Below are positions 3,574 through 28,215 of a stretch of 53,654 nt of DNA, one piece after another. The stretch comes from Bacteroidota bacterium (GTDB lineage Bacteria > Bacteroidota > Bacteroidia > UKL13-3). The stretch lies in the NCBI GenBank assembly GCA_947459075.1, contig CANHBJ010000002.1, positions 1-53,654 of the forward strand. Direction: 5' to 3'. The position numbers were made by a program, and so were the translations under genes. The notes under the pieces were generated by a model. That model made no database searches. It was not told the DNA's origin and saw nothing but the letters and a program-made list of their open reading frames with translations. Every line of letters starts with the position of its first letter. Position 1 is the first letter of the stretch.

Positions 3574-3580
3574 GCTTAGT

Positions 3581-5800: not shown

Positions 5801-5820
5801 AGCAAAATACGTATAAATTT

Positions 5821-6786
5821 ATGATAATTATAACGGGAGCGGAAGGGTTTATTGGCAGTTGTTTAGTTGCCGCCTTAAACCATGCTGGATATAACGATTT
5901 AGTTTTAGTTGACGATTTTGGAATGCCCATCAGGGAAGATAATTTAACTGGTAAAACATACACTACAAAAGTAAATCGTGCAGATTTGGGTGCATGGATT
6001 GATGAAAACCATAGTTTAATTCAGTTTATTTTTCATATTGGGGCACGCACAGACACTACCGAAACCAATAATGCCATTTTAAAGGAGCTTAATTTAGATT
6101 ATTCCAAAATGTTGTGGGAAAAATGCGTAGCGTTTGGCTTACCAATTGTTTATGCTTCGTCAGCTGCTACTTATGGTGATGGTGAACATGGCTATGATGA
6201 CGATGAATCCAAATTGGATTTATTGCAACCACTTAATTTATACGGACACTCAAAAAACGACTTTGATAAATGGGCTATTGCACAAGATAAAAAACCATAC
6301 TTCTGGACTGGACTTAAGTTTTTTAATGTGTACGGACCTAATGAATACCATAAAGGAAGAATGGCAAGCGTGGTGCTGCATGCCTTTAATCAAATACATC
6401 AAACAGGAGAAGTAAAATTATTTAAATCGCATAACCCCAACTACCCGGATGGCGGACAGTTACGCGACTTCATATACGTAAAAGATGTTACTGATGTTTG
6501 TTTGTTTCTAATGACCCACAGAAAACATAGTGGTATCTATAATTTAGGCAGTGGCAAGGCACGCACATTTAATAATTTAGTTGAGGCTATTTTTTCAGCT
6601 CTAAATAAAACACCAAACATCTCCTTTATAGATACGCCAATTGATATTAGAGATAAATACCAATATTTTACGGAAGCCAATATGGCCAAACTAAAATCTA
6701 TTGGATATACCACAAATTTCACCAGTATAGAAGAAGGTGTTACTGATTACGTGAAAAACTATTTGATTCCTAACACAAGGATTTAA
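5821..6786 (+). CDS. hldD: ADP-L-glycero-D-manno-heptose 6-epimerase
   Basis: MIIITGAEGFIGS Rossmann motif, YGHSKNDFDK (YxxxK), and overall HldD/RfaD-like sequence; 321 aa. Confidence 0.85.
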   Translation: MIIITGAEGFIGSCLVAALNHAGYNDLVLVDDFGMPIREDNLTGKTYTTKVNRADLGAWIDENHSLIQFIFHIGARTDTTETNNAILKELNLDYSKMLWEKCVAFGLPIVYASSAATYGDGEHGYDDDESKLDLLQPLNLYGHSKNDFDKWAIAQDKKPYFWTGLKFFNVYGPNEYHKGRMASVVLHAFNQIHQTGEVKLFKSHNPNYPDGGQLRDFIYVKDVTDVCLFLMTHRKHSGIYNLGSGKARTFNNLVEAIFSALNKTPNISFIDTPIDIRDKYQYFTEANMAKLKSIGYTTNFTSIEEGVTDYVKNYLIPNTRI

Positions 6787-6792
6787 ACCCTA

Positions 6793-13500: not shown

Positions 13501-14021
13501 CCGAACAAGGCATTAATTTTCGTTGGAATGTGAACTCATCATGGAGTATTAATAATTCAATAAATACTGGGGTACGTATTTATACTAGTGATTTTTTTAG
13601 CGACAATAACTTTAACTACACATTTATAGAGTTTAAACCTCGCTTAAGTTATCAATTAAATACACGTTTAAGGCTTACAGCATTGTTCAGTTATTTTGAA
13701 GGAAATAATTTAGATGAATTGGGGAATCAAAATAGCAATAACCGTGAAATAGGTGCAGAGTTTAGGTACAGTTTAGTAAAACAAGGTGTAATTAATGCGA
13801 AACTTAGCTCTTATCAAATTAATTTTAATGGCGATGCCCAAAGTCAGTTAGGTTATGATATGTTACAAGGATTAGCAGTTGGACAAAATGCCGTATGGAA
13901 TATTAATTACCAACAACGCCTGGGCAGTAACTTACAAATTACCATTAACTATGATGGCAGATCCGCTGAAGCACAACGAACACTTCATATTGGCAGAATG
14001 GAGGCGAGATACTTATTTTAA
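10518..14021 (+). CDS. Predicted outer-membrane beta-barrel protein (1167 aa), family unknown
   Basis: ATG at 10518 overlaps the kinase stop (ATGA). Signal peptide MMKLLWLWVVLVLTIFVSKAQQ. Long N/Y/G/S/T-rich segments with an alternating pattern. The C-terminus ...RMEARYLF ends in Phe. Confidence 0.7.
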   Translation: MMKLLWLWVVLVLTIFVSKAQQNGSYRVKTITVNTDSLLVDTHTIVKSSVIIFTDNNNLLKEGIDYQINYFTGYLKVIHAYKNKPLELSYKTPNINLKQVYSNKSRSLQIPEIKGNRYDLGYAPNANNRIDLFKNDGLKLNGSISRGLGFGNNQDIVLNANLNLQMAGKLNNDIDVLAAISDDNNPIQPEGNTQQLQDFDRVFVQLTKDNTTLTVGDFEMIRPTGTYFMNYYKKSRGAQFNTMFDIGKKGKINIGADGALSRGRFSRNIINGIEGNQGPYRLNGTNGELFIIIISGTEAVYLDGQKLTRGEQNDYIIDYNTGEITFMPRRPITQYSRIVVEFQFADRNYARTVFHTHTDFEMPKYKIRVNYFTEQDNKDQPFLQSLTDSSKKILANVGDNINAAIINSEVKVSYDSKKVLYRKIDTLTYQGVYVYAPTQGNDSVFYEMRFSLVGQGLGNYKQISSNANGRVYAWVEPIGGTPQGDYEPVIKLISPKRRQMLTVGTELTAIKNTIIKIEAANSINDINTFSNQGKGNDAGYGLKASIENTSNLSSIKNKNKWTLNSSVNYEHVNENFRYVERYRNVEFDRTWNRLLSNQNNNIDTGYEENITSIKTALNHNNNFQVYYQLGSYNRQKQFNGLQHQAGTFLLLGKSTFTAETEWLKTSNNTLGFETSDVRRYKGEVTRKIWKLTSGLNVETEQSYFRRNSDTLLGGSYGYQQYGAFIRNTDSTKVRYHLVYNKRIDLLPRNTEMAQSTVGHNFNTGADIRQKNGNRLSGSFTYREFLISDTNITKLKPERTLLARIEYDYAFLRRVFVANTYYQIGSGQELRRDFQYVEVLVGQGIYVWKDFNDDGAQQLNEFVLAGITDKPMANYIRVFLPTNSYISTNANQFNQTLNINPAAVWNGKKDFRKLVSKLSNQSALKIDRKTTQINTRDFLNPFLLNVNDTSLISLNAIFRNTLFINRSNPTFGAEITYSNQRSKTFLTNGFEARNRTEQGINFRWNVNSSWSINNSINTGVRIYTSDFFSDNNFNYTFIEFKPRLSYQLNTRLRLTALFSYFEGNNLDELGNQNSNNREIGAEFRYSLVKQGVINAKLSSYQINFNGDAQSQLGYDMLQGLAVGQNAVWNINYQQRLGSNLQITINYDGRSAEAQRTLHIGRMEARYLF

Positions 14022-14054
14022 AAAACAAGCAACACATTTCAATCTACACAAATA

Positions 14055-14090
14055 AAAACGCCTTCATTCTATTTAGAATGAAGGCGTTTT
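14055..14090. terminator. Bidirectional rho-independent terminator
   Basis: AAAACGCCTTCATTCT / AGAATGAAGGCGTTTT forms a perfect 16-bp stem flanked by A- and T-runs, between convergent genes. Confidence 0.85.
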
Positions 14091-14112
14091 AGTAACGATT
14101 AACTTTAGAATA

Positions 14113-15501
14113 TTATAAGTGAATACACTCGCCATATGCCTGTGCTGCGGCTTCCATAATAGCTTCACTCATTGTTGGATGCGGATGTACCGATTTAATA
14201 ATTTCCATTCCAGTAGTTTCTAGCTTACGCGCAACTACAACCTCAGCAATTAATTCGGTAACGTTAGCACCTACCATATGGGCTCCTAAAAACTCGCCAT
14301 ATTTAGCATCAAATATTACTTTCACAAAACCTTCTTTAACTCCTGCAGCACTTGCTTTACCACTAGCAGAGAACGGGAATTTACCTACTTTAATTTGGTA
14401 ACCTGCTTCTTTCGCTGCTTTTTCTGTATATCCAACTGAAGCAACTTCAGGTGAGCAGTAAGTACAACCTGGTATGTTATTATAGTTTAAAGCTTCAGGA
14501 TGATGACCTGCAATTTTCTCTACACATATAATTCCTTCTGCACTTGCTACGTGGGCCAAAGCAGGACCTTTTACTATATCACCAATGGCATAAACTCCTT
14601 TAATGTTGGTTGCATAAAAATCATCAACCAATACTTTTCCTTTATCATGTTTAACACCAACAGTTTCTAAACCTAAGTTTTCTAGGTTAGTTTGAATACC
14701 TACAGCCGATAAAACAACATCAGCCTCCAATTCAATTACACCTGTTTTGGTTTTAACTTTTACTTTACAACCAGCACCACTTGTATCAACAGATTCAACA
14801 GCAGAATCAGTCATAATTTCTATGCCCGATTTCTTGAAAGATTTAGCAACTTCTTTTGATACTTCTTCGTCTTCAATAGGAAGAATAGTAGGTAAAAACT
14901 CAACAATGGTAACTTTGGTTCCCATCACATTATAGAAGTATGCAAACTCACAACCAATAGCACCACTGCCCATTACAATCATAGATTTAGGTTGTTTATC
15001 CATAACCATGGCATCGCGATAACCTAATATCTTTTTATTGTCTACTTTTACATTAGGTAACTCGCGGCTACGCGCACCTGTTGCTAAAATAATTGATTTG
15101 GCTTCATATGTTTTTTTCGCACCAGCAGCATCGGTCACTTCTACTTTTCCCGCAGAAGCCAATTTGCCAGAACCCATAAGCACATCAATTTTATTTTTCT
15201 TCATCAAAAAGGCAATACCTTTACTCATGCCATCAGCAACTCCACGGCTGCGTTTAACAACCGCATCAAAATCGTGAGCTGCATCTTTAACACTTATACC
15301 GTAATCATTTGCATGTTTAATGTACTCAAATACTTGAGCCGATTTTAATAAAGCTTTTGTTGGAATACAACCCCAGTTTAAGCAAATACCGCCTAAACTT
15401 TCGCGTTCAACAATAGCTGTTTTTAATCCTAATTGGCTAGCACGGATGGCAGCAACATAACCACCAGGTCCGCTACCTATAACTATTAAATCGTAATTCA
15501 T
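14113..15501 (-). CDS. lpdA: Dihydrolipoyl dehydrogenase
   Basis: GSGPGGYVAAIRA FAD motif, redox-active CLNWGCIPTK, and C-terminal HPHPTMSE; 462 aa. Confidence 0.95.
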   Translation of the reverse strand: MNYDLIVIGSGPGGYVAAIRASQLGLKTAIVERESLGGICLNWGCIPTKALLKSAQVFEYIKHANDYGISVKDAAHDFDAVVKRSRGVADGMSKGIAFLMKKNKIDVLMGSGKLASAGKVEVTDAAGAKKTYEAKSIILATGARSRELPNVKVDNKKILGYRDAMVMDKQPKSMIVMGSGAIGCEFAYFYNVMGTKVTIVEFLPTILPIEDEEVSKEVAKSFKKSGIEIMTDSAVESVDTSGAGCKVKVKTKTGVIELEADVVLSAVGIQTNLENLGLETVGVKHDKGKVLVDDFYATNIKGVYAIGDIVKGPALAHVASAEGIICVEKIAGHHPEALNYNNIPGCTYCSPEVASVGYTEKAAKEAGYQIKVGKFPFSASGKASAAGVKEGFVKVIFDAKYGEFLGAHMVGANVTELIAEVVVARKLETTGMEIIKSVHPHPTMSEAIMEAAAQAYGECIHL

Positions 15502-15614
15502 TGCTTTCTTAATTTGGTTGCAAAATAAATGTTTATTTTTAATTAGGTATGATTTTTTGGCCTTACCACTTCAGTAGCACTAAACAAGCTATTAAAAACA
15601 GATGATTATCCTTG

Positions 15615-17828
15615 TTAAACCAATGCTTTAACAAGCTTATTATCACCTACAATCCATAAGGTATCATTCAATTCAAACTTCATACTAGAATCTGGATTCA
15701 ATATACGCTCTCCATTCCGTTCTATACCTACAATCATTCCATTAATACATTTTCTAAAATTTGATTCCCGTATGGTTTTACCTAGATAAATAAAACCCGG
15801 ATGAACAGTGAGTTGGGTTAAGGTAACATCACCTTCAGCTTGATCAAACACTTGTGCACTGTTGGCCGTTTCGATGGTATTTTTAAAATTAAAAATTTGC
15901 TCATCAGTTCCAATTACCGTTATTTTATCAAAGGGATAGAGTTTGTCTTCTTTGTTTGGCATCATAATTTTTCTGGCACCACGTTCAATCATGGCTAAAT
16001 TAATCCCAAATTTTTCTCTAAGCATGAGTTCCTCAAGAGGTATTCCAACTAATGTACTATCTATATCAATATCAAAGTTAGCCATGTGGGCATCCCATGG
16101 AAGTAAATGCCCAAAAGGCGATTTAACATGCATGGTTTCTCTTAGGTATAAATTATCTATAAACCTTTTCTCAATTTTATTAGAGAAGGCTGTTAAACGT
16201 CTCCTGAAAAGTACAGTTACTATTACTACAACCAAAACACCAATTGTAAGCGCTGTGAAAGTTGAAAAAAGCTGGTCGAGTAAAAAACCTATTAAAAAAA
16301 CACCCAAAGCCACACGGGCAATTTCCATTCCAATTATTGGCCCACGGTTGTATCTGTTTAACCATAGTTCGGTATATGATTGGCGATTAATTTTGCGCAC
16401 AGAAAGCATATATAAAAAAGGTCCTAGAGCACTTATTGCAACAAATGTTGTAAAAACAGTTCCCCATTTACCCCAAACGGTAAAAAAGGGATCAATAAAA
16501 TTTGTAACCACTAAAATAATGGCTAAACAAATTACCCCATTAAATATAATAACTTGAAAAAATTGATTTAATACTTTTTTCCAATCACTTTCAGCATTAA
16601 TATGCTGCGCTCCAGTCGAATATTCATTTATCACTTGAAGCCATTTTGTTGGTAACACCCTATTTAAAAAATCATTTAAAGGCTCAGCAAATCTGATCAT
16701 ATATGGAGTGGTAAATGTTGTAATTACCGATACACCAACAGCAATTGGATATAGAAAATCACTGGTTACTCCCAAAGTAAGTCCAAGAGTGGCTATGATA
16801 AAACTAAACTCGCCAATTTGTGATAAGCTTGTACCTGCTTGTACACTTTGTTTTAATGGAACACCACTTATTAAAGATCCACTCGTAACAAAAAATGTTT
16901 TACCTAACATAACAATAAAAGTAAGTAATATAACAGGGCCTATGTATGTTATTAATATACCCGGATTAATAAGCATACCAACTGACACAAAAAATACAGC
17001 GCCAAATAAATCTTTAACTGATTTAACCACATGTTCTATACGTTCGGCTTGCGTTGTTTCAGCTAAAATACTACCCATAATAAAGGCGCCCAAGGCTGCG
17101 CTAAAACCAACATTAGCAGCAAACAAAACCATTCCTAAACACAATGCAATTGAAATAATTAATAAGGTTTCATCGCTTATGTGTTTACTTAATTTTTTAA
17201 GCAAACTTGGTAACAAGTATATGCCCATTAAAAACCACAACACTAAGAAAAAACCTAGCTTTAACACAGAAGCCAACATTTCACCACCCTGAAACTTTTG
17301 ACTTACTGCTAATGTAGATAGGAGCACCATCAATAAAACTGCAGCTAGATCTTCAATTACTAAAATACCTATTACTGTACCAGTAAACTTCTTTGCTTTT
17401 AATCCTAGTTCATCAAATGCTCTAAAAATAATAGTGGTTGATGATATAGCAATTATTCCGCCTAAGAAAATACTATCCATTTTACCCCAACCTAAAAATT
17501 GCCCTGCAAAATATCCCGTAATGAGCATAGCTGTTACCTCAAACAAACCTGTTATTGCTGCAGTACTCCCAACTTTTACCAACTTTTTAAAACTAAACTC
17601 TAACCCTAAGCTAAAGAGCAGGAAAATAACACCAATTTCTGCCCATATTTTAATGCTGTCCACTTCGGTTACAGTTGGAAATAAAGAAAAATTGGGACTA
17701 ACCAACAATCCCGCAATGATATATCCCAAAACTACTGGCTGGTTTAGCTTTTTAAAAATAAGCGAAACAACACCTGCAGAGAAAAGTATAAGCGCTAAAT
17801 CTGTTATTAGATGAGGGACATGTGCCAT
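15615..17828 (-). CDS. CPA2-family cation:proton antiporter with C-terminal RCK_C/TrkA-C domains
   Basis: N-terminal Kef-type Na/H-exchanger region with ~12 TM (LNQPVVLGYIIAGLLVSP), then a TM block and two soluble TrkA-C-like repeats (...ITVIGTDEQI..., ...LWIVGDNKLV). Confidence 0.85.
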   Translation of the reverse strand: MAHVPHLITDLALILFSAGVVSLIFKKLNQPVVLGYIIAGLLVSPNFSLFPTVTEVDSIKIWAEIGVIFLLFSLGLEFSFKKLVKVGSTAAITGLFEVTAMLITGYFAGQFLGWGKMDSIFLGGIIAISSTTIIFRAFDELGLKAKKFTGTVIGILVIEDLAAVLLMVLLSTLAVSQKFQGGEMLASVLKLGFFLVLWFLMGIYLLPSLLKKLSKHISDETLLIISIALCLGMVLFAANVGFSAALGAFIMGSILAETTQAERIEHVVKSVKDLFGAVFFVSVGMLINPGILITYIGPVILLTFIVMLGKTFFVTSGSLISGVPLKQSVQAGTSLSQIGEFSFIIATLGLTLGVTSDFLYPIAVGVSVITTFTTPYMIRFAEPLNDFLNRVLPTKWLQVINEYSTGAQHINAESDWKKVLNQFFQVIIFNGVICLAIILVVTNFIDPFFTVWGKWGTVFTTFVAISALGPFLYMLSVRKINRQSYTELWLNRYNRGPIIGMEIARVALGVFLIGFLLDQLFSTFTALTIGVLVVVIVTVLFRRRLTAFSNKIEKRFIDNLYLRETMHVKSPFGHLLPWDAHMANFDIDIDSTLVGIPLEELMLREKFGINLAMIERGARKIMMPNKEDKLYPFDKITVIGTDEQIFNFKNTIETANSAQVFDQAEGDVTLTQLTVHPGFIYLGKTIRESNFRKCINGMIVGIERNGERILNPDSSMKFELNDTLWIVGDNKLVKALV

Positions 17829-17946
17829 AGGTATACAATGATATTGTTGCCAAAATACTAATTAAGCCATGATATACAAAGTGATGTACTTGTTATGACA
17901 ATTATTTAACACCGATAATGCCTATATAATTTATCGCGTAAATGTT

Positions 17947-17954
17947 TACTTTTG
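17947..17954 (+). promoter_or_regulatory. Candidate Bacteroidota -7 box (TAnnTTTG)
   Basis: TACTTTTG lies 22 nt upstream of the ppiase ATG. No canonical -33 TTTG at the expected spacing. Confidence 0.25.
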
Positions 17955-17975
17955 CACACCTAAATGTAACAAGTA

Positions 17976-18413
17976 ATGACTAAAACAGCTGAAATACACA
18001 CCGCTAAAGGTGTAATGAAAATTGAATTTTTTGAAAACGATGCACCGAATACCGTTGCCAACTTTACAAAGTTAGCCAAAAGTGGTTTTTACAATGGCCT
18101 GACATTTCATAGGGTGTTGCCAGATTTTGTAATACAAGGCGGTTGCCCAAATGGAATTGGTAATGGTGGACCTGGATATAAGATTGATTGTGAATTAACA
18201 GGAGAAAACCAATACCATGATAGAGGTGTTTTGTCAATGGCACATGCAGGACGTAACACAGGAGGCTCGCAATTTTTTATTTGCCACAGTCGCACAAATA
18301 CTGCTCACCTTGATAGAAACCATACTTGCTTTGGTAAAGTGGTTGAAGGGTTAGAAGTAATCGATGCCATTCGTCAAGGTGATATAATGGAAAAAGTAAT
18401 TATCAACGAATAA
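17976..18413 (+). CDS. Cyclophilin-type peptidyl-prolyl cis-trans isomerase
   Basis: [20 protein letters not shown] and [12 protein letters not shown] cyclophilin signatures. Confidence 0.9.
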
Positions 18414-18452
18414 TGAATTGCTGCATACGCAGCTTACATACCAACATTTTAT

Positions 18453-19724
18453 ATGTTACAACTATCGGTATTAAGAGAAAACACCCAAGAGGTTAAGGAA
18501 CGCTTAAATAAACGCAACCCTGCATTTTTAAATGTGGTTGATGAAGTACTTGTGCTTGATGAAAAAACACGTGCCGCTAAACAAGAAATGGAAAACAACC
18601 AAGCTGAGGCAAATAAAATTGCCAAGCAAGTTGGTGAACTGATGAAAAATGGAAAACGTGAAGAAGCCGAAGAGGTAAAAAAACAATCATCAAGTTTAAA
18701 AGAACAAGCCAAACAATTAGAGGAAATAGTAAAGCAACTTGAGGAAAATTTATTTGCCAAATTAGTTACCATTCCAAACACACCAAATGCAATTGTACCA
18801 GAAGGTAAAACACCTGAAGAAAACGTTACTGTTTTTCAAAATGGCGAAATACCAACACTTGCTGAAGGTGCAATACCACATTGGGATTTAATTACAAAAT
18901 ACGATTTAATTGATTTTGAATTAGGCACAAAAATAACAGGAGCTGGGTTTCCAGTTTACCGTGGTAAAGGTGCTCGTATGCAACGTGGTTTGGTAAATTT
19001 CTTTTTAGACGAAGCCATGAAAGCAGGTTATGAAGAAATTGTACCTCCATATTTGGTAAATGCGGAAAGTGGTTTTGGAACAGGACAGTTACCCGATAAA
19101 GAAGGCCAAATGTACCATGCACAAGTTGATGATTTATATTTGATACCAACAGCAGAAGTACCAGTTACTAACTTATACCGTGATGTAATTTTAAAAGAAG
19201 AACAATTGCCAATTAAAAATGTGGCCTATTCTCCTTGTTTTAGAAGAGAAGCTGGAAGTTGGGGTGCACACGTGCGTGGATTAAACCGTTTACATCAATT
19301 TGAAAAAGTAGAAATTGTACAAATTGCTACACCTGAGCAATCGTATGCAATTTTAGATGAAATGGTAAAACACGTACAAGGTTTGTTAGAGAAACTTGAA
19401 TTACCATACCGTATACTTCGTTTATGTGGTGGCGATATGGGCTTTACATCAGCACTAACCTATGATTTTGAAACATACAGCGCAGCACAACAACGTTGGT
19501 TAGAAGTAAGCTCTACTTCAAACTTCGAAAGTTTTCAGGCCAATCGTTTAAAATGCCGTTACAAAACCAAAGATGGTAAAAATCAATTGGTACATACTTT
19601 AAATGGAAGTGCATTGGCATTACCACGTATTTTAGCCACCATTTTAGAAAACAACCAAACACCTGAAGGTATTAAAATACCAAAAGCATTAGTGCCTTAT
19701 GTTGGGTTTGATGTGATTAATTAA
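18453..19724 (+). CDS. serS: Seryl-tRNA synthetase
   Basis: N-terminal coiled-coil arm followed by a class II core (FRREAGS..., GSALALPR); 423 aa. Confidence 0.95.
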   Translation: MLQLSVLRENTQEVKERLNKRNPAFLNVVDEVLVLDEKTRAAKQEMENNQAEANKIAKQVGELMKNGKREEAEEVKKQSSSLKEQAKQLEEIVKQLEENLFAKLVTIPNTPNAIVPEGKTPEENVTVFQNGEIPTLAEGAIPHWDLITKYDLIDFELGTKITGAGFPVYRGKGARMQRGLVNFFLDEAMKAGYEEIVPPYLVNAESGFGTGQLPDKEGQMYHAQVDDLYLIPTAEVPVTNLYRDVILKEEQLPIKNVAYSPCFRREAGSWGAHVRGLNRLHQFEKVEIVQIATPEQSYAILDEMVKHVQGLLEKLELPYRILRLCGGDMGFTSALTYDFETYSAAQQRWLEVSSTSNFESFQANRLKCRYKTKDGKNQLVHTLNGSALALPRILATILENNQTPEGIKIPKALVPYVGFDVIN

Positions 19725-19748: not shown

Positions 19749-19775
19749 AAGCCACACTTTTAGTGTGGCTTTTTA
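19749..19775 (+). terminator. Rho-independent terminator after serS
   Basis: GCCACAC (19751-19757) / GTGTGGC (19763-19769) followed by a T5 run. Confidence 0.75.
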
Positions 19776-19844: not shown

Positions 19845-20417
19845 ATGCTTAATGATAGAGAGTTAATTGAAGCTATATTAGGTGGTGACGAAGCCGCTTT
19901 TAAAACGCTTTATAACATGTACACAAGCATGGTATATAACACTGCTTTAAGTATTTTGCAACAACAATCAGAAGCAGAAGATATTACCCAAGATGTATTT
20001 ATAGAAATACATAAATCAATTGGAAAATTTAGACAAGAATCGACCTTAAAAACCTGGATATATAGAATAACCATAACCAAATGTTACGATTATTTAAAGA
20101 GACAAAAAACTAAAAAAAGGTTTGCCCAACTTACCTCACTATTTAATAATGAAAATAAGTTGGTATATGATAAACCGCATTTCGAACACCCAGGTGTTGC
20201 ACTTGAAAACAAAGAACATGCAAGTGTGTTATTTTTGGCTATAAGTAAGCTTCCTATTAAACAACAAACTGCATTTACTTTAAGTAAAATTGAACAATTA
20301 TCTTATCAAGAAATTGCAGAAATAATGAATACCACAATATCTAGTGTAGAATCGCTCCTTTTTAGGGCAACTAGAAATTTAAGAATCACGTTATCTGAAT
20401 ATTATAAAAATAAATAA
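19845..20417 (+). CDS. ECF-type RNA polymerase sigma-70 factor
   Basis: Region 2 DITQDVFIEIHKSIGKFRQESTLKTWIYRITITKCYDYL. Region 4 LSYQEIAEIMNTTISSVESLLFRATRNL. Confidence 0.9.
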   Translation: MLNDRELIEAILGGDEAAFKTLYNMYTSMVYNTALSILQQQSEAEDITQDVFIEIHKSIGKFRQESTLKTWIYRITITKCYDYLKRQKTKKRFAQLTSLFNNENKLVYDKPHFEHPGVALENKEHASVLFLAISKLPIKQQTAFTLSKIEQLSYQEIAEIMNTTISSVESLLFRATRNLRITLSEYYKNK

Positions 20418-20461
20418 ACAGTTAACGCAAGTTTTGATGCTGTTATACTTCTAAATAACAG

Positions 20462-20776
20462 ATGACTAATTCAAATAATAAAATAATTGACGATACTGTA
20501 AATAGCATACACAGTATTCAACGAGCGGAAGCATCTCCCTTTTTGTTCAATAAGATTATTAATCGTATTAAAACGGGAACACCAGAGCCAATTTATTATA
20601 CGGGAGCATGGTTTTTGCGAATTGCTGTTACAGGAGTAGTTATTATTTCACTAAATGCCATAACCATTTGGACTGTAACTAAACAACCCCAAAAACAAAT
20701 AAATGAACAATTCGAATTACATAAGATAGCACAAGAATATTTCGGCAACGAGCATGTTTCAAGTTACTTTTATTAA
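20462..20776 (+). CDS. Small single-pass membrane protein, putative anti-sigma factor
   Basis: 104 aa with one TM (WFLRIAVTGVVIISLNAITIWTV), immediately downstream of the ECF sigma gene. The role is assigned by position only. Confidence 0.5.
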   Translation: MTNSNNKIIDDTVNSIHSIQRAEASPFLFNKIINRIKTGTPEPIYYTGAWFLRIAVTGVVIISLNAITIWTVTKQPQKQINEQFELHKIAQEYFGNEHVSSYFY

Positions 20777-20785
20777 TTTATAATC

Positions 20786-21331
20786 ATGAGAATAAACAAA
20801 ACTAAACTGTTGCTTACTTTGGTTATTTTATTAACCATACTTAATGTAAGCACAATTGCTAGTATTTGGAGATTTATCGACTTCAGCACGTTATCTATGA
20901 TAACAACACATGCACCAATCGGTGGTCCGAAAGATTTTATCATTAGCAAACTTGATTTAAACGAAGAACAACAAAAAGTTTTTGAAGAACTTCGTCAGGA
21001 ACATTTTCAAGAAATGAAAAATTTACAGGATAATATCCGTATAGAAAAAGATGCCATGTACGACTTGTTAAAAAGTGACCAACCAGATACAACTGCATCA
21101 TACCAACACATTGCTCGAATAATGCAAAATGAAGAGAAACTTGAGCACATCACGTTTAATCATTTTAGAAAAGTGAGGGCAATTTGCACTGCTGAGCAAC
21201 AACAACATTTTGATGTAATTATTGATGAAGTAATGCGAATGCTAATGAGACCACCACGTCCACATGCACCTGGTGCAATGCATCAAAATAAAAATAACCA
21301 AGCCAAAGATGAACATTACCCCTTACCATAA
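20786..21331 (+). CDS. Spy/CpxP/ZraP-like periplasmic protein (LTxxQ-type helical repeats)
   Basis: N-terminal signal/anchor, LNEEQQKVFEELRQEHFQEMKNL and CTAEQQQHFDVIIDEV repeats, and a Pro/His-rich tail. Confidence 0.65.
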   Translation: MRINKTKLLLTLVILLTILNVSTIASIWRFIDFSTLSMITTHAPIGGPKDFIISKLDLNEEQQKVFEELRQEHFQEMKNLQDNIRIEKDAMYDLLKSDQPDTTASYQHIARIMQNEEKLEHITFNHFRKVRAICTAEQQQHFDVIIDEVMRMLMRPPRPHAPGAMHQNKNNQAKDEHYPLP

Positions 21332-21345
21332 ACAACTTAACTGAA

Positions 21346-21594
21346 ATGAAGTTATTAAAGAATATCGCACTAAGCGATACAGGATTTGTATTTAATCCAG
21401 GCAATGGAGATTCTTTTTCGGTAAACCCAATTGGATTGAGCATCCTAAAAGATTTACAAGAAGGCAAATCGGAAGATGCTATTAGAAACAGGGTAGTTGA
21501 AGATTACCAAACGGATAAAGAAACCATTGAAAAAGATTTATATGATTTTTTGAAAATGATTGAACAATTTAACCTCACCGATTACCATGAGTAA
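21346..21594 (+). CDS. PqqD-like small protein (RiPP-recognition-element / peptide-chaperone fold)
   Basis: 82 aa. ...GDSFSVNPIGLSILKDLQEGKSEDAIRNRVVEDYQTDKETIEKDLYDFLKMIEQ is typical of PqqD-family winged-helix proteins. Confidence 0.65.
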   Translation: MKLLKNIALSDTGFVFNPGNGDSFSVNPIGLSILKDLQEGKSEDAIRNRVVEDYQTDKETIEKDLYDFLKMIEQFNLTDYHE

Positions 21595-22633
21595 ACGGAA
21601 GATTACTATTGCTGTTTCAGGTTTAAATAACATTGACAGTCCTGGTCCCGGCATACCAGTTATTCGTGCACTCAAAGACAGCGAACTATTTGAAATTCGA
21701 ATTATTGGTTTATCATACGACACAATGGAACCGGGAATTTATATGCATGATTTGGTAGATAAAACATACCAAATACCGCTACCATCAGCCGGTCAACAAA
21801 GTTTAATTACTCGTTTAACATACATACATCAGCAAGAAAAAATTGATGTATTAATTCCCAACTTTGATGCGGAATTGTTTAACTTCATAAAACTTCAAGA
21901 CATGCTAAAAAAAATGGGTATAGATACATTTTTGCCCACACTAGAGCAGTTTGAAGAAAGACAGAAATGGGCTTTAAATACTTTTGGAGAAAAGTATGGC
22001 ATTAAGGTGCCAAAAAGTAAACAAATTAATAGTACAGCCGAAATACATGCATTAACACATGAATTCGGCTATCCATTAGTAGTTAAAGGCAAATTTTATG
22101 ATGCAACAGTTGCCTATTCACCAGATCAAGCCATGGCAGCATTTAACAAAATAAGCAGCAAGTGGGGATTACCTATAATAATACAACAATATACACCAGG
22201 AATAGAGGTAAACCTTACTGGAATTGGCGATGGAAAAGGAAATTTAATTGGTGCTGTGCCAATGCGCAAAACATATATAACAGATAAGGGCAAAGCATGG
22301 GCTGGTATAGCTTTAGAAGACGAAACCCTTATGAATATTGCTCGCAACATGTTAAAAGGAAATAAATGGAGAGGTGGTTTTGAATTGGAAATGATAAAAA
22401 CTGATAAGCGAGAATATTATTTGATTGAGATTAATCCGAGATTTCCAGCATGGGTTTATTTGGCAGTTGGTGCAGGGCAAAACCATCCCGAAGCACTTGT
22501 TAGGCTTGCGCTTGGCGAAGATGTAAAGCCTTATGAAAGCTATGAATCTGGTAAAATGTTTATCCGATATTCATACGATAAAATTGTTGACCTGAAAGAA
22601 TTTGAAACCATTTCTACCCTAGGTGAATTATAA
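21587..22633 (+). CDS. ATP-grasp carboxylate-amine ligase (pre-ATP-grasp + ATP-grasp)
   Basis: I chose the ATG at 21587, which overlaps the PqqD-like gene by 8 nt. YPLVVKGKFYDA, IIQQYTPGIE and YYLIEINPRFPAW (the E-x-N Mg/ATP motif). No signal peptide. Confidence 0.8.
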   Translation: MSKRKITIAVSGLNNIDSPGPGIPVIRALKDSELFEIRIIGLSYDTMEPGIYMHDLVDKTYQIPLPSAGQQSLITRLTYIHQQEKIDVLIPNFDAELFNFIKLQDMLKKMGIDTFLPTLEQFEERQKWALNTFGEKYGIKVPKSKQINSTAEIHALTHEFGYPLVVKGKFYDATVAYSPDQAMAAFNKISSKWGLPIIIQQYTPGIEVNLTGIGDGKGNLIGAVPMRKTYITDKGKAWAGIALEDETLMNIARNMLKGNKWRGGFELEMIKTDKREYYLIEINPRFPAWVYLAVGAGQNHPEALVRLALGEDVKPYESYESGKMFIRYSYDKIVDLKEFETISTLGEL

Positions 22634-22651
22634 CGAATTAGAAAAAAACAG

Positions 22652-24028
22652 ATGAAAAAGCAAATTTACGAACGCCCCTTAATACAAAGAATCAATACTG
22701 GAATGATGAATAAATTCGGTACCAAAACAGAATATGCACCTGTAAGTCATATTGATGGTTTGGCAGTAAAAGATTTGATAAATGAATACGGATCTCCCCT
22801 ATTTGTTCTAAGTGAGGAAACCATAAGAAACACATATAGAGATGCTGTTCGTGCATTTAAAACTAGATATCCCAAAGTGCAATTCGCATGGAGTTATAAA
22901 ACCAATTACATCAATGCGGTATGCAATATATTCCATCAAGAAGGATCATGGGCAGAAGTTGTTTCTGGGTTTGAATACCAAAAAGCAATTAACAACGGAG
23001 TACCTGGACCAAAAATTATTTTTAACGGACCTGACAAAAGTGATGATGATTTAAGACTTGCAATAACTAATAACTCACCTATCCACATTGATCATCTTGA
23101 TGAACTTTATCGTTTAACTGAGTTAGCCGAAGAAATGAATAAACGACCTAATGTTGCTATTCGCGTAAATATGGATACGGGTATTTATCCAATGTGGGAT
23201 CGTTTTGGATTTAACTACGAAAACGGACAAGCATGGGATGCAATCAATAAAATAATTTTAGGCAATAGACTTGAGTTAATTGGTGTTCATTGTCACATCG
23301 GTACTTTCATGTTATCGCCTCAAGCATATGCTACAGCAGCTTATAAGTTATCTGATTTGGCATTGGGAATAAAAAAGAAATTCGGCAAAACAATTCAATA
23401 CATCGATATGGGTGGAGGTTTTGCATCTAAAAATACGTTGAAGGGTTCATTTCTTCCGGGTGCCGACACCACTCCTACCATAGATCAATTTGCAGAATCT
23501 ATTACCACAGCACTACTAAATGCAGGATTTACCGAAAGTGACTTACCACTTCTAATTTTAGAAACAGGTAGGGCACTAATTGATGAGGCAGGTTATTTAT
23601 TGGGAAGCGTGCTAGCGAACAAACGCTTAAGCGATGGAAGAAGAGCTACCATTATGGATTTTGGTGTAAATATTTTGTTCACCTCTTTTTGGTACGATCA
23701 TAAAATTAGCCCTGCGCAAGAATTTAGTTCTTATACAGAAGACACAGTAATGTATGGCCCATTATGTATGAATATTGATGTAGTAAGAAGTCATATTACC
23801 TTGCCACCATTAAGAAAAGAAGACCATGTAGTTGTACATACAGTTGGTGCATATAACATGACACAATGGATGCAGTTTATTGCTATGCGTCCAGCTGTAG
23901 TAATCATTGGTACTGATGGAAAATCGCATTTAATTCGCAGTAAAGAAACGATAGAAAATATAGAATCGAATGAAGTTATGCCAGATTTTTTAAGAAAGCA
24001 TGAACTAGCATCTGGTATTTTAAAATAA
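22652..24028 (+). CDS. Fold-type III PLP-dependent decarboxylase (Orn/DAP/Arg decarboxylase family)
   Basis: SPLFVLSEETIR..., FAWSYKTN (Schiff-base Lys context), IDMGGGFAS (phosphate loop), YGPLCMNIDVV (Cys-x-x-x-D region) and VGAYNMTQ. Confidence 0.8.
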   Translation: MKKQIYERPLIQRINTGMMNKFGTKTEYAPVSHIDGLAVKDLINEYGSPLFVLSEETIRNTYRDAVRAFKTRYPKVQFAWSYKTNYINAVCNIFHQEGSWAEVVSGFEYQKAINNGVPGPKIIFNGPDKSDDDLRLAITNNSPIHIDHLDELYRLTELAEEMNKRPNVAIRVNMDTGIYPMWDRFGFNYENGQAWDAINKIILGNRLELIGVHCHIGTFMLSPQAYATAAYKLSDLALGIKKKFGKTIQYIDMGGGFASKNTLKGSFLPGADTTPTIDQFAESITTALLNAGFTESDLPLLILETGRALIDEAGYLLGSVLANKRLSDGRRATIMDFGVNILFTSFWYDHKISPAQEFSSYTEDTVMYGPLCMNIDVVRSHITLPPLRKEDHVVVHTVGAYNMTQWMQFIAMRPAVVIIGTDGKSHLIRSKETIENIESNEVMPDFLRKHELASGILK

Positions 24029-24034
24029 CTACTA

Positions 24035-26224
24035 TTGAAAAGCCATATTCAATTATTCGGAAAAGGATATATAAATAGTTATTCTCAATTGTTTTTCGCA
24101 GATAGTAAAACATTTGCGTGGTTACTATTGCTATCTTCTTTTGTTAATCCCATTATGGGAATTAGCGGGGCCATAGCAACCATTTCTGGTTTGGTTTTTT
24201 CGTATTGGATTGGATTAAATAGGACACACATTGGCCATGGAGTATATAGTTATAATGCGTTAATGATTGGCCTCGTTTTAGGGTCGCAATATCAAATAAC
24301 ATCATCATATTTGCTGCTGTTATTGGTTGCTGCAATTCTTAGTGTAATTATTACAGTTTGGTTCAATACAGTTTTGGCCAAATACCAATTACCATCGTTA
24401 AGTTTATCTTTTCTATTTAGCCTTTGGTTAATAACTATTGGGCTTCGTACATATAATAACATCACACTTAGCGAAAGTAGTATATACAGATACAACGATT
24501 TGTATTTATTAGGTGGCGATCAATTATTAAACTTCATGAATAAGTTGGAGGAAAATCAACTTCCTGAAGTGGTTGATGTATATTTAAAATCACTCTCAGC
24601 AGTATTCTTCCAATACAATATCATTGCAGGCTTCCTAATTTTAATTGGATTAATCATTTGGTCGAGAATTGCATTTATACTTTCCATTATTGGATTTAGT
24701 ATAGGATACCTATTTTATTTTGGCTTATCAGGAGAATTCTCTCAACTTTACTACAGTTATATTGGGTTTAACTTTATTCTTACTGCAATAGCATTAGGAG
24801 GTTATTATCTCATACCTTCACGTGCTTCAATTATGTTAGCTATTATATCAATGCCCATTATAGGCGTTTTGATCAGTGGTTTAAATGGTATTCTAATTGT
24901 ATATCAACTTCCATTATTTTCGTTACCATTTGTTATCACAGTATTAATTGTTTTGATGTTATTAAGTCAAAGGACTTACCTGCACAGATTAATTCCTGTT
25001 ACCTATCAACATTTTTCGCCCGAAAAAAACAAGTACAACTATTCCAATAATGTCACACGATTCAAAAATAGTAAATGGGTTAATATTCAACTACCATTTT
25101 TCGGAGAGTGGTTTGTTTCGCAGGGGTATAATGGCAAAATAACACATAAAGAAAATTGGAGTGATGCATTAGATTTTGTTGTAGTGGATGAAACTAAGCA
25201 TACTTTTAAGTCACTTGGTACATCTGTTACAGACTTTTACTGTTATAACTTACCAATACTTGCACCAGCAGATGGATTTGTGGTAGAAATTGCTGATGGT
25301 ATAGAAGACAACAAGATTGGTGATGTTGATTTGATAGAAAACTGGGGAAATAGTATTGTAATTAAACATGCAGATGGCTTATATAGTAAACTATCACACC
25401 TAAAAGCGAATTCTATTCTAGTACAATTAAACGATTATGTAAGGGCAGGACAAATGTTGGCAAGCTGTGGTAGCTCTGGCAGATCGCCAGAACCACATTT
25501 GCATTTCCAGATGCAAACAACTCCTTTTATAGGATCAGCAACTTTAAGATATCAAATAAACCATTTTATAAGCAGGGTAAACGAAAAATACCAATTTCAC
25601 GAAAACGAAATACCAGAAGAAGGGGCCCAAATTCATCAACCTATAAAAACTCCATTATTAAGTAAAGCTTTACATTTTACACCTGGTCAAATAATTACAT
25701 TTGAAACCATACTGAACGCAGGAAATAAAATTAGTATAAATTGGGAATGCATGGTTGATGCATGGAATAAAACCTATTTGTATTGCCAACAAACAAAAGC
25801 ATACGCCTATTTTGTAAATGATGGTACAACATTTTATTTTACCAGTTACCACGGATCAAAAAAATCGTATTTATTTGATTTTTATCTGGCAGCTTACAAA
25901 ATTCTCTTGGGCTATTATCCTGATTTAACAATAAAAGATAGTATTGATATTGGATTATTTAATCACCCTATTTCATTGTGGTTTCAAGATATTATTGCTC
26001 CATTTTATCTTTTTAAAAAGGTAAGTTATCAGGTGAATTTTAAACAAATAGACGATATGATTGCACCTACATACATAGTTATGGAGAGTAAAATTGAAGC
26101 ATACAACTTTAACTCAAAAACAAAAGAGCGCAATTATAAATTAGTAATACAAGATGGCAAACTGATGCAAATTGTTATTAACCCAAACCAAAAATCAGCT
26201 CAAACAATAACATGTACAAACTAA
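24035..26224 (+). CDS. Fusion protein: urea-transporter-like membrane domain + M23 (LytM) peptidase domain + ~220-aa C-terminal domain of unknown function
   Basis: TTG start. The N-terminal ~320 aa are polytopic, with the UT-like signature YINSYSQLFFADSKTFAWLLLLSSFVNPIMGISGAIATISG. The M23 core is GNSIVIKHADGLYSKLSHLKANSILVQLNDYVRAGQMLASCGSSGRSPEPHLHFQM. Confidence 0.65.
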   Translation: MKSHIQLFGKGYINSYSQLFFADSKTFAWLLLLSSFVNPIMGISGAIATISGLVFSYWIGLNRTHIGHGVYSYNALMIGLVLGSQYQITSSYLLLLLVAAILSVIITVWFNTVLAKYQLPSLSLSFLFSLWLITIGLRTYNNITLSESSIYRYNDLYLLGGDQLLNFMNKLEENQLPEVVDVYLKSLSAVFFQYNIIAGFLILIGLIIWSRIAFILSIIGFSIGYLFYFGLSGEFSQLYYSYIGFNFILTAIALGGYYLIPSRASIMLAIISMPIIGVLISGLNGILIVYQLPLFSLPFVITVLIVLMLLSQRTYLHRLIPVTYQHFSPEKNKYNYSNNVTRFKNSKWVNIQLPFFGEWFVSQGYNGKITHKENWSDALDFVVVDETKHTFKSLGTSVTDFYCYNLPILAPADGFVVEIADGIEDNKIGDVDLIENWGNSIVIKHADGLYSKLSHLKANSILVQLNDYVRAGQMLASCGSSGRSPEPHLHFQMQTTPFIGSATLRYQINHFISRVNEKYQFHENEIPEEGAQIHQPIKTPLLSKALHFTPGQIITFETILNAGNKISINWECMVDAWNKTYLYCQQTKAYAYFVNDGTTFYFTSYHGSKKSYLFDFYLAAYKILLGYYPDLTIKDSIDIGLFNHPISLWFQDIIAPFYLFKKVSYQVNFKQIDDMIAPTYIVMESKIEAYNFNSKTKERNYKLVIQDGKLMQIVINPNQKSAQTITCTN

Positions 26225-27372
26225 CCTCACTTTTTGTACTTTGTTTTGTATTTGTTTGTGCCAACTCACAAGTGTATTATAATTCAGGTGTAGATAAATT
26301 AATTAAAGAAGAATACAATAAAGGAAATTGGAAAAATGTAATTCAAATTACTGACAGTATTCACAAAATAGGCATTGGATACCATGAGGCCTTTGAAATG
26401 GCTGCAGATGCCGCATATATTTTAAATAAACCATTTAAACAACATGCATACTTACAATATGCATTAAACGATTTTCCAACGGATAGTGCGGTCTTATTGA
26501 AATTAGCTTATTGTTTCTGGGCAACACAACAATATTCTCATGGTAATAAAGCACAATACAAACTATTAAAAGGCGGGCAATTAAGTGAACAAAATAAAGT
26601 TAAAAATAATGTTGTAAATTTTGATTTTGGAAGTAAAATTAGCAACAATACGAACCTATATAATAATTTAAATTATGTTTCAATTGGTACAACTTTCCCT
26701 ATAAAGTATTTGCTTACTTACCATGGGATAACTTATCTAAGTCAAAATAGTTTTTATGGAGATATAGCTCAAATACAATATTACCTGAATACATCATTAG
26801 CACTAAAAAAAGGATGGAAAATTATTGGAATAATGCATTTAGCAGAATATAATCTTACTAACTATCCTTCAGATTTAATTGGCAATCAAATATTATCAGG
26901 CGAACAATACGTTTTGGGTTTAGGAACAAGTAAACTTTATAAAAATTGTTTGTTTGGAATCGATGTCATAAAATCTAATTTAAACTATATGGATCAACTC
27001 CAAATAGTTTCGGGAATAACATACTACCCATTAAATAACACCAAGCTTATACTTAATATAGATGCAAATTACCTTACCGAAAAATCACACATCATTACAT
27101 CTTATAACCTTAATTACTCACCAATTAATTCATTAAATATAATTGTGAGCTATTTACAAGCCAATACACGTAACTTTACAGAACAGAATGCATTTTTACT
27201 TCATAACTCTTTTGATATTACCCGAAATAAATACGCATTATCCGTAACAAAACATATTTCAAAAACCATACGTATTTCAGGAATATTTCAATTGGAAAAT
27301 AAAATAGAAACAATAAGTAACACCAATTATCAATACAAAATATTAGGTTTAGGTGTAAAAAATATTTTTTAA
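26212..27372 (+). CDS. Predicted outer-membrane beta-barrel protein with N-terminal helical region
   Basis: Overlaps the preceding gene by 13 nt. Signal peptide MYKLTSLFVLCFVFVCANSQ. The C-terminal two-thirds consists of alternating-pattern strands ending ...LGLGVKNIF (terminal Phe). Confidence 0.6.
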   Translation: MYKLTSLFVLCFVFVCANSQVYYNSGVDKLIKEEYNKGNWKNVIQITDSIHKIGIGYHEAFEMAADAAYILNKPFKQHAYLQYALNDFPTDSAVLLKLAYCFWATQQYSHGNKAQYKLLKGGQLSEQNKVKNNVVNFDFGSKISNNTNLYNNLNYVSIGTTFPIKYLLTYHGITYLSQNSFYGDIAQIQYYLNTSLALKKGWKIIGIMHLAEYNLTNYPSDLIGNQILSGEQYVLGLGTSKLYKNCLFGIDVIKSNLNYMDQLQIVSGITYYPLNNTKLILNIDANYLTEKSHIITSYNLNYSPINSLNIIVSYLQANTRNFTEQNAFLLHNSFDITRNKYALSVTKHISKTIRISGIFQLENKIETISNTNYQYKILGLGVKNIF

Positions 27373-27381
27373 TAAACATAT

Positions 27382-27987
27382 ATGAAAATTTTAATTTTAA
27401 CATTTTTAATGCTTGGCATAAATCCAATATTTGCTCAAGAAACAACACTACAAACAGCATTCGAAAAAAGTTATATTTCAGAAAAAATCGGAAATTTTAA
27501 TGAAGCTAGCAAAGCATTAATGCAGGTATACAATGAAAAGTCATATGAATTAAATTTACGTTTGGGTTATTTAAAATATATGGCTGGTGCATATAATGAT
27601 GCCATTATTTTTTATAAAAAAGCAATACAATTAATGCCATATGCTATTGAACCGCGATTAGGTTATGTATACCCAGCTGCAGCTCTAAATAAATGGGATG
27701 ATGTGATATTACAATATCAGGCTATACTAAAAATTGACCCTAAAAATAGTACCGTTAATTATAAATTAGGTGTTATTTACTACAACCGAAAAAAATATGC
27801 ACAAGCAAATAGTTTATTTGAAAAGGTAGTAAATCTTTATCCGTTTGATTATGATGGAATATTGATGTATGCATGGACTAATTACCGCATGGGCAAATTA
27901 CCTCAAGCAAAACTATTATTTAAAAAGGTATTGTTAATTTCTCCTAATGATAAATCAGCATTAGAAGGATTAGCCCTCATAAAATAA
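27382..27987 (+). CDS. Secreted TPR-repeat protein
   Basis: Signal peptide MKILILTFLMLGINPIFAQ. TPR-like repeats (AIIFYKKAIQLMPYAIEP, YQAILKIDPKNSTVNYKLGVIYYNRKKYAQANSLFEKVVNLYP). Confidence 0.75.
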   Translation: MKILILTFLMLGINPIFAQETTLQTAFEKSYISEKIGNFNEASKALMQVYNEKSYELNLRLGYLKYMAGAYNDAIIFYKKAIQLMPYAIEPRLGYVYPAAALNKWDDVILQYQAILKIDPKNSTVNYKLGVIYYNRKKYAQANSLFEKVVNLYPFDYDGILMYAWTNYRMGKLPQAKLLFKKVLLISPNDKSALEGLALIK

Positions 27988-28215
27988 AAAACACAGGATA
28001 AATAATTGAATAAATACTTTACTTTATATTTTACATCTTATTAGAGATAAGATATCTATTATTTATTTATCAAATCAATAATATCAATATGCTAATAACA
28101 GTAGTTATCATTTAACAATTAATAATACTGTATAACAAATTTAGCTTTTCTATATTGGTAGCTAAAAATACCATACATTTTTAGTGCTTTGCACACAATG
28201 TATTACCTTAGCGAT

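Follow-up and report, generated by a model that had tools for sequence, protein, structure and literature searches.

PqqD-family proteins are adaptors that bind peptides, and urea-type pores conduct small neutral solutes. Li et al found that FigC, SbnH, AcsE, MccE and BtrK fall in one clade with diaminopimelate decarboxylase (DAPDC), and that the members of this clade, except DAPDC and D-ornithine decarboxylase, decarboxylate amino acids that are attached to a larger scaffold and take no part in polyamine synthesis (PMC7857480). In this paper we describe a cassette of six genes, g4-g9 (positions 21346-27987), in which a PqqD-family protein is encoded together with an ATP-grasp ligase, a decarboxylase related to this clade and a urea-transporter fold joined to an M23 peptidase domain. 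The cassette lies in a 53,654-nucleotide stretch of contig CANHBJ010000002.1 (assembly GCA_947459075.1, a Bacteroidota bacterium), and this whole stretch is called the window below. An earlier reading made from the letters and their translations, which we refer to as the sequence-only reading, had proposed a self-contained unit of nine genes. Only six of them, encoding the PqqD, ATP-grasp, decarboxylase, urea transporter (UT)/M23, tetratricopeptide repeat (TPR) plus barrel, and TPR proteins, travel together, and these six are the conserved functional unit, which in this lineage stands behind a triad of further genes, g1-g3. We favour, as a possible rather than a probable account, a pathway in which adaptor-guided ligation and decarboxylation yield a product that is freed by the M23 domain and leaves the cell through the channel and a pair of outer-membrane proteins.

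Related loci were found by scanning one genome per species with an alignment of ATP-grasp homologues, and at least 585 stretches were confirmed as relatives. The genome set is the best 80 of these at least 585 loci and covers many Bacteroidota orders as well as Ignavibacteria, Kapaibacteria and Chlorobiota; the metagenome set consists of 80 further loci from a scan seeded with distant ATP-grasp relatives. For the genome loci, collinearity was established by tblastn with the nine window proteins and by independent clustering of open reading frames (ORFs). A full-library search with g5 returned 229 cluster representatives at E <= 1e-30. The six genes, with the number of the 80 genome loci in which each component is present, are as follows.

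21346-21594, plus strand: g4, PqqD-family protein of 82 amino acids, of the peptide-binding RiPP recognition element (RRE) type, RiPP standing for ribosomally synthesised and post-translationally modified peptide (PqqD PF05402, 3.9e-10); 73 of 80 loci
21587-22633, plus strand: g5, ATP-grasp ligase of 348 amino acids (ATPgrasp_Ter, PRK12767-like; all below equivalog cut-offs); 80 of 80 loci
22652-24028, plus strand: g6, alanine-racemase-fold, pyridoxal phosphate (PLP)-dependent decarboxylase of the FigC/DAPDC/BtrK group (profile match to solved structures); 76 of 80 loci
24035-26224, plus strand: g7, UT/M23 fusion with a TTG start; 65 of 80 loci
26212-27372, plus strand: g8, signal peptide, TPR-like helical N-domain and probable outer-membrane beta-barrel (model and Foldseek); signal-peptide protein of about 450 amino acids at this position in 58 of 80 loci
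27382-27987, plus strand: g9, secreted TPR protein of 201 amino acids (TPR_2 4e-18 and others); TPR protein of about 206 amino acids in 59 of 80 loci

Absences among the genome loci fall mostly at contig ends. The sequence-only reading had named co-occurrence of the enzyme genes beyond this genome as a test of the unit, and they are collinear in the 80 genome and the 80 metagenome loci. Gaps between the core genes are short in the relatives; the median overlap is 13 nt for g7/g8 and g8/g9, and g7 and g8 overlap by that same length in the window. On metagenome contigs of 63-74% G+C the PqqD, ATP-grasp, decarboxylase, UT/M23 and TPR genes are still collinear. Seven loci (L086, L090, L092, L101, L116, L120 and L146; G+C 63-74% where listed, 57% in L146) have the TPR gene directly 3' of the UT/M23 gene and a 380-430-amino-acid TPR and beta-rich protein upstream of PqqD, so that gene order has changed in them while the set of components seems to have been kept. 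Another seven, of Bacteroidales type (L046, L051, L052, L053, L054, L059 and L068), have the cassette and its AraC-type regulator directly downstream of genes of the cell-elongation machinery, which encode RodA and a PBP2-like transpeptidase and lie 0.7-2.5 kb upstream of PqqD; this adjacency may reflect synteny within the lineage or hint at a link to the cell wall. An anti-phage defence role was rejected, as none of the seven proteins tested matched a known defence system in PADLOC.

Two natural fusions tie the cytoplasmic components to one another. P0339, a distant g5 relative of 477 amino acids, is a PqqD and ATP-grasp fusion whose PqqD domain (residues 14-76; Pfam 3.9e-14) is 33% identical to g4. 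P0280, a distant relative of 871 amino acids, is an ATP-grasp and decarboxylase fusion with 42% identity to g5 (1e-96) and 42% identity to g6 (8e-129). In the window, g4 and g5 overlap by 8 nt. The two fusions are strong evidence that the adaptor, ligase and decarboxylase cooperate on consecutive steps. Proteins of about 710 amino acids with two tandem ATP-grasp units, such as P0254 and P0269, also occur among the g5 relatives.

The adaptor g4 scores 40.3 bits against PF05402 (cut-off 23.4), and its best NCBIfam match is a lasso-peptide PqqD chaperone, below the cut-off of that model. Conservation is high in the N-terminal sheet region, and the C-terminus is variable, which rules out a LysW-like carrier with a conserved acidic C-terminus. 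For g5 we prefer the ATG start at 21587, as homologues are 347-351 amino acids long; the longest ORF begins at a TTG at 21560. Identity of g5 is 61-73% across Bacteroidota orders and Ignavibacteria, a level of conservation that, judged from these alignments, is unusual for secondary metabolism and nearer to housekeeping genes than to antibiotic clusters. Profile comparison with solved structures places carbamoyl-phosphate synthetase, the uncharacterised protein 2PN1, biotin-carboxylase domains and PurD nearest to g5, with cyanophycin synthetase as a weak match.

The closest solved match of g6 is FigC (7kh2, 1.3e-53), followed by DAPDC and then BtrK (about 7e-27). Curated models place narrower limits on the assignment: g6 scores 224.4 bits against the FslC model NF041039 (cut-off 500) and 211.2 bits against LysA TIGR01048 (equivalog cut-off 297.9), and both identities were rejected as below cut-off, LysA also on account of an extra conserved N-terminal tail. 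The sequence-only reading had named clear orthology to a known primary-metabolism pair as a refuting result; by the LysA model the decarboxylase is not that housekeeping enzyme, and profile scores support similarity only at the level of the wider FigC/DAPDC/BtrK group. The proximity of FigC bears on a different account of the cassette, namely a peptide-free pathway to a polyamine-like or metal-binding small molecule that follows FigA/FigC logic, that is, joining, decarboxylation and export through g7-g9, with the PqqD protein as an assembly adaptor only. We consider this account improbable. FigC as closest solved relative, the lack of a nearby precursor gene and a conserved g6 tail that could be a PqqD target all fit it; NIS synthetase (for siderophores made without nonribosomal peptide synthetases), TonB-dependent receptor and siderophore-uptake genes, however, are not associated with the cassette in the related loci.

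The tail, which lies outside the catalytic fold, is an extension of about 30 amino acids; alignments to solved decarboxylases begin near residue 32 of g6. It contains one conserved element.

22667-22720, plus strand: conserved N-terminal tail motif of g6, YERPLIQRINTGMMNKFG, residues 6-23 (alignment across 149 loci)

The motif reads [YF]-E-[RK]-P-x-[ILV]-x-[RK]-x3-G-x2-[NS]-K-[FY]-G or a close variant and can be recognised in almost every one of the 149 loci in which it was checked, down to 48% overall identity. Its YxxPx[ILV] half is the most constant and is still present in the P0280 fusion; variation in distant loci is greatest in the second half. This constant half resembles YxxPxL, the leader motif of lasso-peptide precursors (PMC10368454). 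The RREs of lasso-peptide pathways bind that leader motif. By our own estimate the chance occurrence of such a three-position pattern in a 25-residue stretch is of the order of 1%, and we treat the resemblance as a lead, not a result. On this sequence pattern the tail may be a docking site for g4. We consider it rather unlikely, though worth stating, that g4 docks on the g6 tail and not on a substrate peptide, that this assembles a ligase-decarboxylase complex beneath a trimeric urea-channel/M23 protein, and that the whole is a phylum-wide, hitherto unrecognised machine for making a small amide or amine compound and bringing it to the outer envelope. If so, g4-g6 docking would be the first case of an RRE serving as an enzyme-recruiting adaptor, and g7 the first cytoplasmic M23 peptidase fused to a channel.

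Since PqqD proteins are known to bind peptides, a precursor gene was sought. ORFs of 18-79 amino acids were clustered across loci, and the recurrent clusters were all alternative frames of conserved genes; ORFs of 15-90 amino acids, taken from flanks of 2.5-3 kb at about 160 loci, yielded nothing but shadow frames of known genes. The cassette does have features of a RiPP pathway, namely the RRE/PqqD domain in 73 of 80 loci and its coupling to an enzyme by overlap and by the P0339 fusion. With no precursor peptide gene associated in these loci, however, the label RiPP, at which the sequence-only reading had hinted, is not one that we can assert; a precursor encoded at a distant site is possible. 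A graspetide pathway, marked by an MdnB/MdnC-type ATP-grasp enzyme beside a precursor with core repeats, was also set aside, as these searches gave no precursor and no graspetide ligase is among the nearest solved relatives of g5.

The largest protein, g7, has three parts, and its AlphaFold model has a mean pLDDT (predicted local distance difference test) of 88.8.

24071-24961, plus strand: g7 residues 13-309, urea-transporter-fold membrane domain (UT PF03253 4e-52, 177.7 bits)
25082-25534, plus strand: g7 residues about 350-500, M23 (LytM) zinc-peptidase domain (Peptidase_M23 2.8e-15, 57 bits; Foldseek LytM matches)
25535-26224, plus strand: g7 residues 501-729, conserved beta-rich C-terminal domain (confidently modelled; about 27 invariant columns)

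Residues from about 10 to 340 match urea transporters with target-normalised TM-scores of 0.76-0.88 among the structures listed by Foldseek. Both LPxxTxPF pore motifs survive, reading LPSLSLSF and LPLFSLPF, and in each the pore Thr is replaced by Ser. Over the 56 homologues in which residue conservation was assessed, P120, F126 and L292 are invariant, and S123, P293, S296, P298 and F299 are at least 90% conserved. Against the Yut model TIGR03441, g7 scores 107.9 bits (cut-off 274.6), and no urease or urea-metabolism genes lie nearby on the contig of the window's relative or in the related loci. The last 230 amino acids are a candidate new domain family, because no relative could be detected in Pfam or the Protein Data Bank (PDB): the PDB profile search gave E >= 0.16, Pfam gave nothing below E = 0.015, and among the 50 Foldseek matches listed for g7, all UT- or M23-containing except one poor phage match, none covered this domain.

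In the M23 domain H371, D380, H455, H488 and H490 are invariant in the 56 homologues, and lysostaphin, zoocin and DipM can be aligned with it over the HxH and SHL segments. The spacing of the first His-Asp pair is 8 residues, as opposed to the usual 3. Because the zinc ligands and catalytic histidines are invariant, the domain is predicted to be of the active type and not a degenerate LytM domain. Its location follows from the membrane part. In urea transporters the two termini face the cytoplasm and the long loop between the repeats faces outward. Residues 10-319 of g7 align to residues 59-361 of UT-A2, and the last transmembrane helix is followed by a K/R-rich linker and then by the M23 domain. 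The M23 and C-terminal domains would therefore lie on the cytoplasmic side. With the M23 domain probably facing the cytoplasm, cutting of the cell wall is unlikely, and a reading in which the peptidoglycan sacculus is cleaved or decorated is not the natural one.

The alternative that the cassette remodels peptidoglycan or the envelope nevertheless has to be weighed here. D-aspartate ligase in enterococci adds a residue to the stem peptide of a cell-wall precursor; by analogy, the ATP-grasp enzyme would extend a precursor stem peptide, a DAPDC-like enzyme would decarboxylate a tethered diamino or dicarboxylic residue, M23 would trim, and the TPR and barrel proteins would link the wall to the outer membrane. 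We regard this as unlikely. It gains from the almost exclusive action of characterised M23 domains on peptidoglycan peptides, with the catalytic residues of g7 intact, from the relation of g6 to DAPDC, from the envelope-stress-type sigma/Spy pair among the regulators, and from the seven Bacteroidales-type loci in which the cassette is directly 3' of the PBP2 and RodA genes. That adjacency, however, is limited to one lineage, Mur, Fem and flippase genes are not associated with the cassette in the related loci, and the M23 domain comes after a UT bundle with an even number of helices and after a K/R-rich linker, which predicts a cytoplasmic domain. A remodelling pathway also gives no role to the PqqD adaptor or to the retained urea-pore motifs. 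The small-molecule account with FigA/FigC logic meets a difficulty at this protein too, as an active peptidase domain is hard to fit into a peptide-free pathway.

The last two genes appear to act in the outer envelope. The g8 gene overlaps g7 by 13 nt, and its product ends in ...GVKNIF. In the model, helices occupy residues 26-120 and are followed by at least 11 long strands, with a pLDDT of 51; the model is poor because only 10 close homologues were retrieved. The top-ranked and nearly all of the 50 listed Foldseek matches are beta-barrel membrane proteins, mostly of bacterial outer membranes, with weak scores that, given the poor model, support assignment to the outer-membrane barrel class only. 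No Pfam or NCBIfam family matched g8. It is homologous to the family found at the g8 position in 54 loci (hhalign probability 99.9%, E = 4e-36), of which 28 of 54 members end in F and 10 of 10 inspected N-termini resemble signal peptides; C-terminal aromatic signatures recur throughout this family. The outer-membrane barrel ending in Phe that the sequence-only reading had called thus stands as regards the C-terminal F, the strands and the signal peptide, and is weakened by the poor model and the generic matches; g8 is a probable outer-membrane beta-barrel as modelled. The upstream TPR/beta protein of the high-G+C loci was not established as a g8 homologue (hhalign probability 61%, over the TPR part only). 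Identity of g9 is about 45-55% in most Bacteroidota loci and 26-39% in the most distant, above that of g7 and g8, and g9 homologues have signal-peptide-like N-termini.

Secretion of a poly-amide or other polymer, as in synthase-dependent exopolysaccharide systems, would also suit the combination of TPR and barrel parts in g8 and g9; in that case g8/g9 would be the outer-membrane exit and the ATP-grasp enzyme would polymerise. ATP-grasp enzymes make cyanophycin and poly-glutamate tails, cyanophycin synthetase is the weak profile match of g5 mentioned above, and BcsC is among the weak g8 Foldseek matches listed. We nevertheless think polymer secretion very unlikely: no glycosyltransferase or polymerase is present in the related loci, the sole inner-membrane component is a narrow urea-type pore, the decarboxylase has no obvious place, and the g8 barrel model is too poor for the channel to be sized.

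The pathway that we prefer, of adaptor-guided ligation and decarboxylation followed by release and export, would run as follows. The PqqD adaptor g4 would hold a peptide segment, either a distal substrate or the g6 tail, for g5, which would attach an amino acid, by its side chain, to a larger scaffold at a carboxylate or amine. The tethered amino acid would then lose its alpha-carboxyl group to g6, leaving an amine. On the cytoplasmic face, under the UT-type pore, the M23 domain of g7 would cleave off the finished unit, a small amide or amine, which the pore would then pass into the periplasm; the TPR protein g9 and the TPR plus barrel protein g8 would deal with it at the outer membrane. What has been observed is the gene set with its conservation, the two types of fusion, the intact catalytic residues and the folds; we infer the order of the reactions, the identity of scaffold and product, the cytoplasmic position of M23, the role of g7-g9 in export and the dependence on the sigma factor. 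Several points weigh against this pathway. A urea-type pore is too narrow for a charged amine or a peptide, and the cytoplasmic placement of M23 is drawn from homology to urea transporters. By profile, g5 is nearer to carbamoyl-phosphate-synthetase- and biotin-carboxylase-type domains than to known peptide ligases. No conserved small ORF or candidate precursor was found within or beside the cassette in about 160 loci. The barrel assigned to g8 comes from a poor model (pLDDT 51), and high-G+C lineages carry a barrel-like gene upstream whose homology to g8 is not established (hhalign 61%). Lastly, co-transcription of the cassette with a sigma factor gene is judged from gene spacing.

That sigma factor gene is the first of the three genes that precede the cassette in the window.

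19845-20417, plus strand: g1, extracytoplasmic function (ECF)-type sigma-70 factor (Sigma70_r2 and r4_2; TIGR02937 102.3 bits, cut-off 42.9)
20462-20776, plus strand: g2, small single-pass membrane protein (one transmembrane segment; no family match)
20786-21331, plus strand: g3, Spy/CpxP/ZraP-like LTXXQ protein with an N-terminal hydrophobic segment (Metal_resist 45.6 bits, LTXXQ 32.9 bits)

The domain calls of the sequence-only reading for the sigma, Spy-like, PqqD, ATP-grasp, PLP decarboxylase (Orn/DAP/Arg type), UT/M23 and TPR proteins are borne out by Pfam and NCBIfam. For g2, which it had called anti-sigma-like, position and the single transmembrane segment agree, and family and sequence conservation do not: there was no match in Pfam, NCBIfam or PADLOC and no tblastn match in any related locus, and in L012 an unrelated ORF of 88 amino acids occupies the g2 position. 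By its position only, g2 is a possible anti-sigma factor.

Upstream regulators were counted in the 63 loci with enough flanking sequence. The cassette is preceded by a sigma factor gene in about 6 of 63 loci and by a Spy-like homologue in about 5; elsewhere AraC-type regulators (23 loci), LytTR response regulators (10) and hybrid sensor kinases (5) take this place. The g1 sigma factor is thus a lineage-specific regulator outside the conserved core and one of several that are interchangeable, and the description of the module as stress-regulated applies to lineage-specific wiring, since the sigma/small-transmembrane/Spy-like triad is found upstream in so few loci. Different lineages place the cassette under different dedicated regulators, and the lineage of the window uses an ECF sigma factor. 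Here g1-g3 are probably co-transcribed with g4-g9 and probably control them, given that the gap between g3 and g4 is only 14 nt. The commonest upstream gene encodes an AraC-type regulator of about 200 amino acids with an N-terminal heavy-metal-associated (HMA)-like domain (20.5 bits, below cut-off; 23 loci) and lies between about -1000 and -380, counted from the start of the ATP-grasp gene (L001 and a further 22 loci). This weak domain and the placement of g3 in the 'Metal_resist' family speak for a metal-binding small molecule of the FigA/FigC kind; the example in L001 speaks against it, as its usual CxxC metal site reads SNSC (MTSNSC), and metal binding by this domain is therefore doubtful.

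The layout of the block agrees with the sequence-only reading in every particular. It consists of nine plus-strand ORFs separated by 44, 9, 14, -8, 18, 6, -13 and 9 nt, and a 99%-identical contig has the same nine genes in the same order, between the same housekeeping flanks, in an independent gene call. The terminator that had been placed before the first gene was located between serS and g1 as a hairpin with a T tract, and the gap after the last gene is indeed AT-rich.

19749-19771, plus strand: intrinsic-terminator-like hairpin ending the upstream serS (10-bp stem with 5 G-C pairs, then TTTATTTT)
27988-28188, no strand: AT-rich intergenic gap ending the block (201 nt, 19% G+C)

Within the block there is no comparable plus-strand terminator, the only other site being a weak 5-pair stem at 21642-21659, inside g5, and downstream of g9 no gene is conserved in the related loci. 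A scan for sigma-70 promoters was uninformative (47 sites, 50 expected), and the consensus used differs from Bacteroidota promoters. The whole window has no Rfam family match and no tRNA gene. The flanks (1-19724 and 28189-53654) resemble ordinary housekeeping genes, with a Na+/H+ exchanger, cyclophilin and serS upstream and a Sua5/TsaC-like gene, a diacylglycerol-kinase-like gene, asparaginase II, signal peptidase I and dapB downstream, and no signs of mobile elements were seen around the cassette.

The view that no described pathway has this gene set agrees with the literature, as about 8.3 million full texts gave none, many subscription papers being outside the search. None of the curated family libraries searched describes the set, no cassette protein reached the cut-off of a function-specific NCBIfam model, and the database names of the homologues are generic ('ATP-grasp domain-containing protein', 'urea transporter', 'peptidase M23'). 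Its carriers are hundreds to thousands of genomes of Bacteroidota and allied groups, from soil, water and gut, and its enzymes are conserved about as strongly as those of core metabolism. Several things are new here: an adaptor of RRE type that is joined to an ATP-grasp ligase by fusion or coupling, without a visible precursor peptide; a decarboxylase, from the group to which enzymes for tethered amino acids belong, tied to that ligase by natural fusions; and a urea-channel fold joined to an apparently active M23 domain on the side expected to be cytoplasmic. Identification of the product would probably bring to light a new metabolite or modification of the envelope in one of the major bacterial phyla, and would widen the known uses of three well-studied protein folds.

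Compared with described systems, the cassette is closest in chemistry to rhizoferrin synthesis by FigA/FigC (FslA/FslC) and to SbnH and AcsE, in which side-chain ligation is followed by decarboxylation of the tethered amino acid by an alanine-racemase-fold PLP enzyme (PMC7857480). The ligase here, however, is an ATP-grasp enzyme and theirs an NIS synthetase, siderophore uptake genes are lacking here, and the PqqD adaptor, UT/M23 fusion and TPR/barrel partners belong to this cassette only. BtrI/BtrJ/BtrK of butirosin synthesis, of which BtrK is described in PMC7857480, likewise set a small partner protein beside an ATP-grasp ligase and a decarboxylase of alanine-racemase fold that acts on a tethered amino acid. 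Their small protein is an acyl carrier protein with a phosphopantetheinyl tether; the one here has the PqqD fold, matches no carrier-protein family and shows no conserved attachment residue, and an aminoglycoside context is absent. RRE-dependent RiPP pathways (lasso peptides, PQQ) share a discrete PqqD/RRE protein that is translationally coupled to, or fused with, a modifying enzyme; they differ in having a precursor gene, of which about 160 loci of this cassette gave none, and in the lasso cyclase, radical-SAM or YcaO enzymes that this locus lacks. With the urea transporters UT/SLC14, Yut and dvUT, g7 shares the fold and both signature pore motifs, but it is fused to M23 and to the candidate new domain of 230 amino acids and has no urease genes nearby. 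Synthase-dependent export systems (AlgK/AlgE, PgaA, BcsC) have a counterpart here in the TPR protein and probable barrel, but no locus has a synthase or glycosyltransferase. Peptidase-containing ABC transporters (PCAT exporters) are alike by analogy only, in that a cytoplasmic peptidase fused to a membrane conduit would couple release to export; the parts are unrelated, the peptidase of g7 being M23 in place of C39 and its conduit a UT channel in place of an ABC transporter. Leaving the PCAT exporters aside, the cassette shares at most two components with any of these systems and lacks at least one defining feature of each, and in our assessment it is a new kind of system assembled from folds already known.

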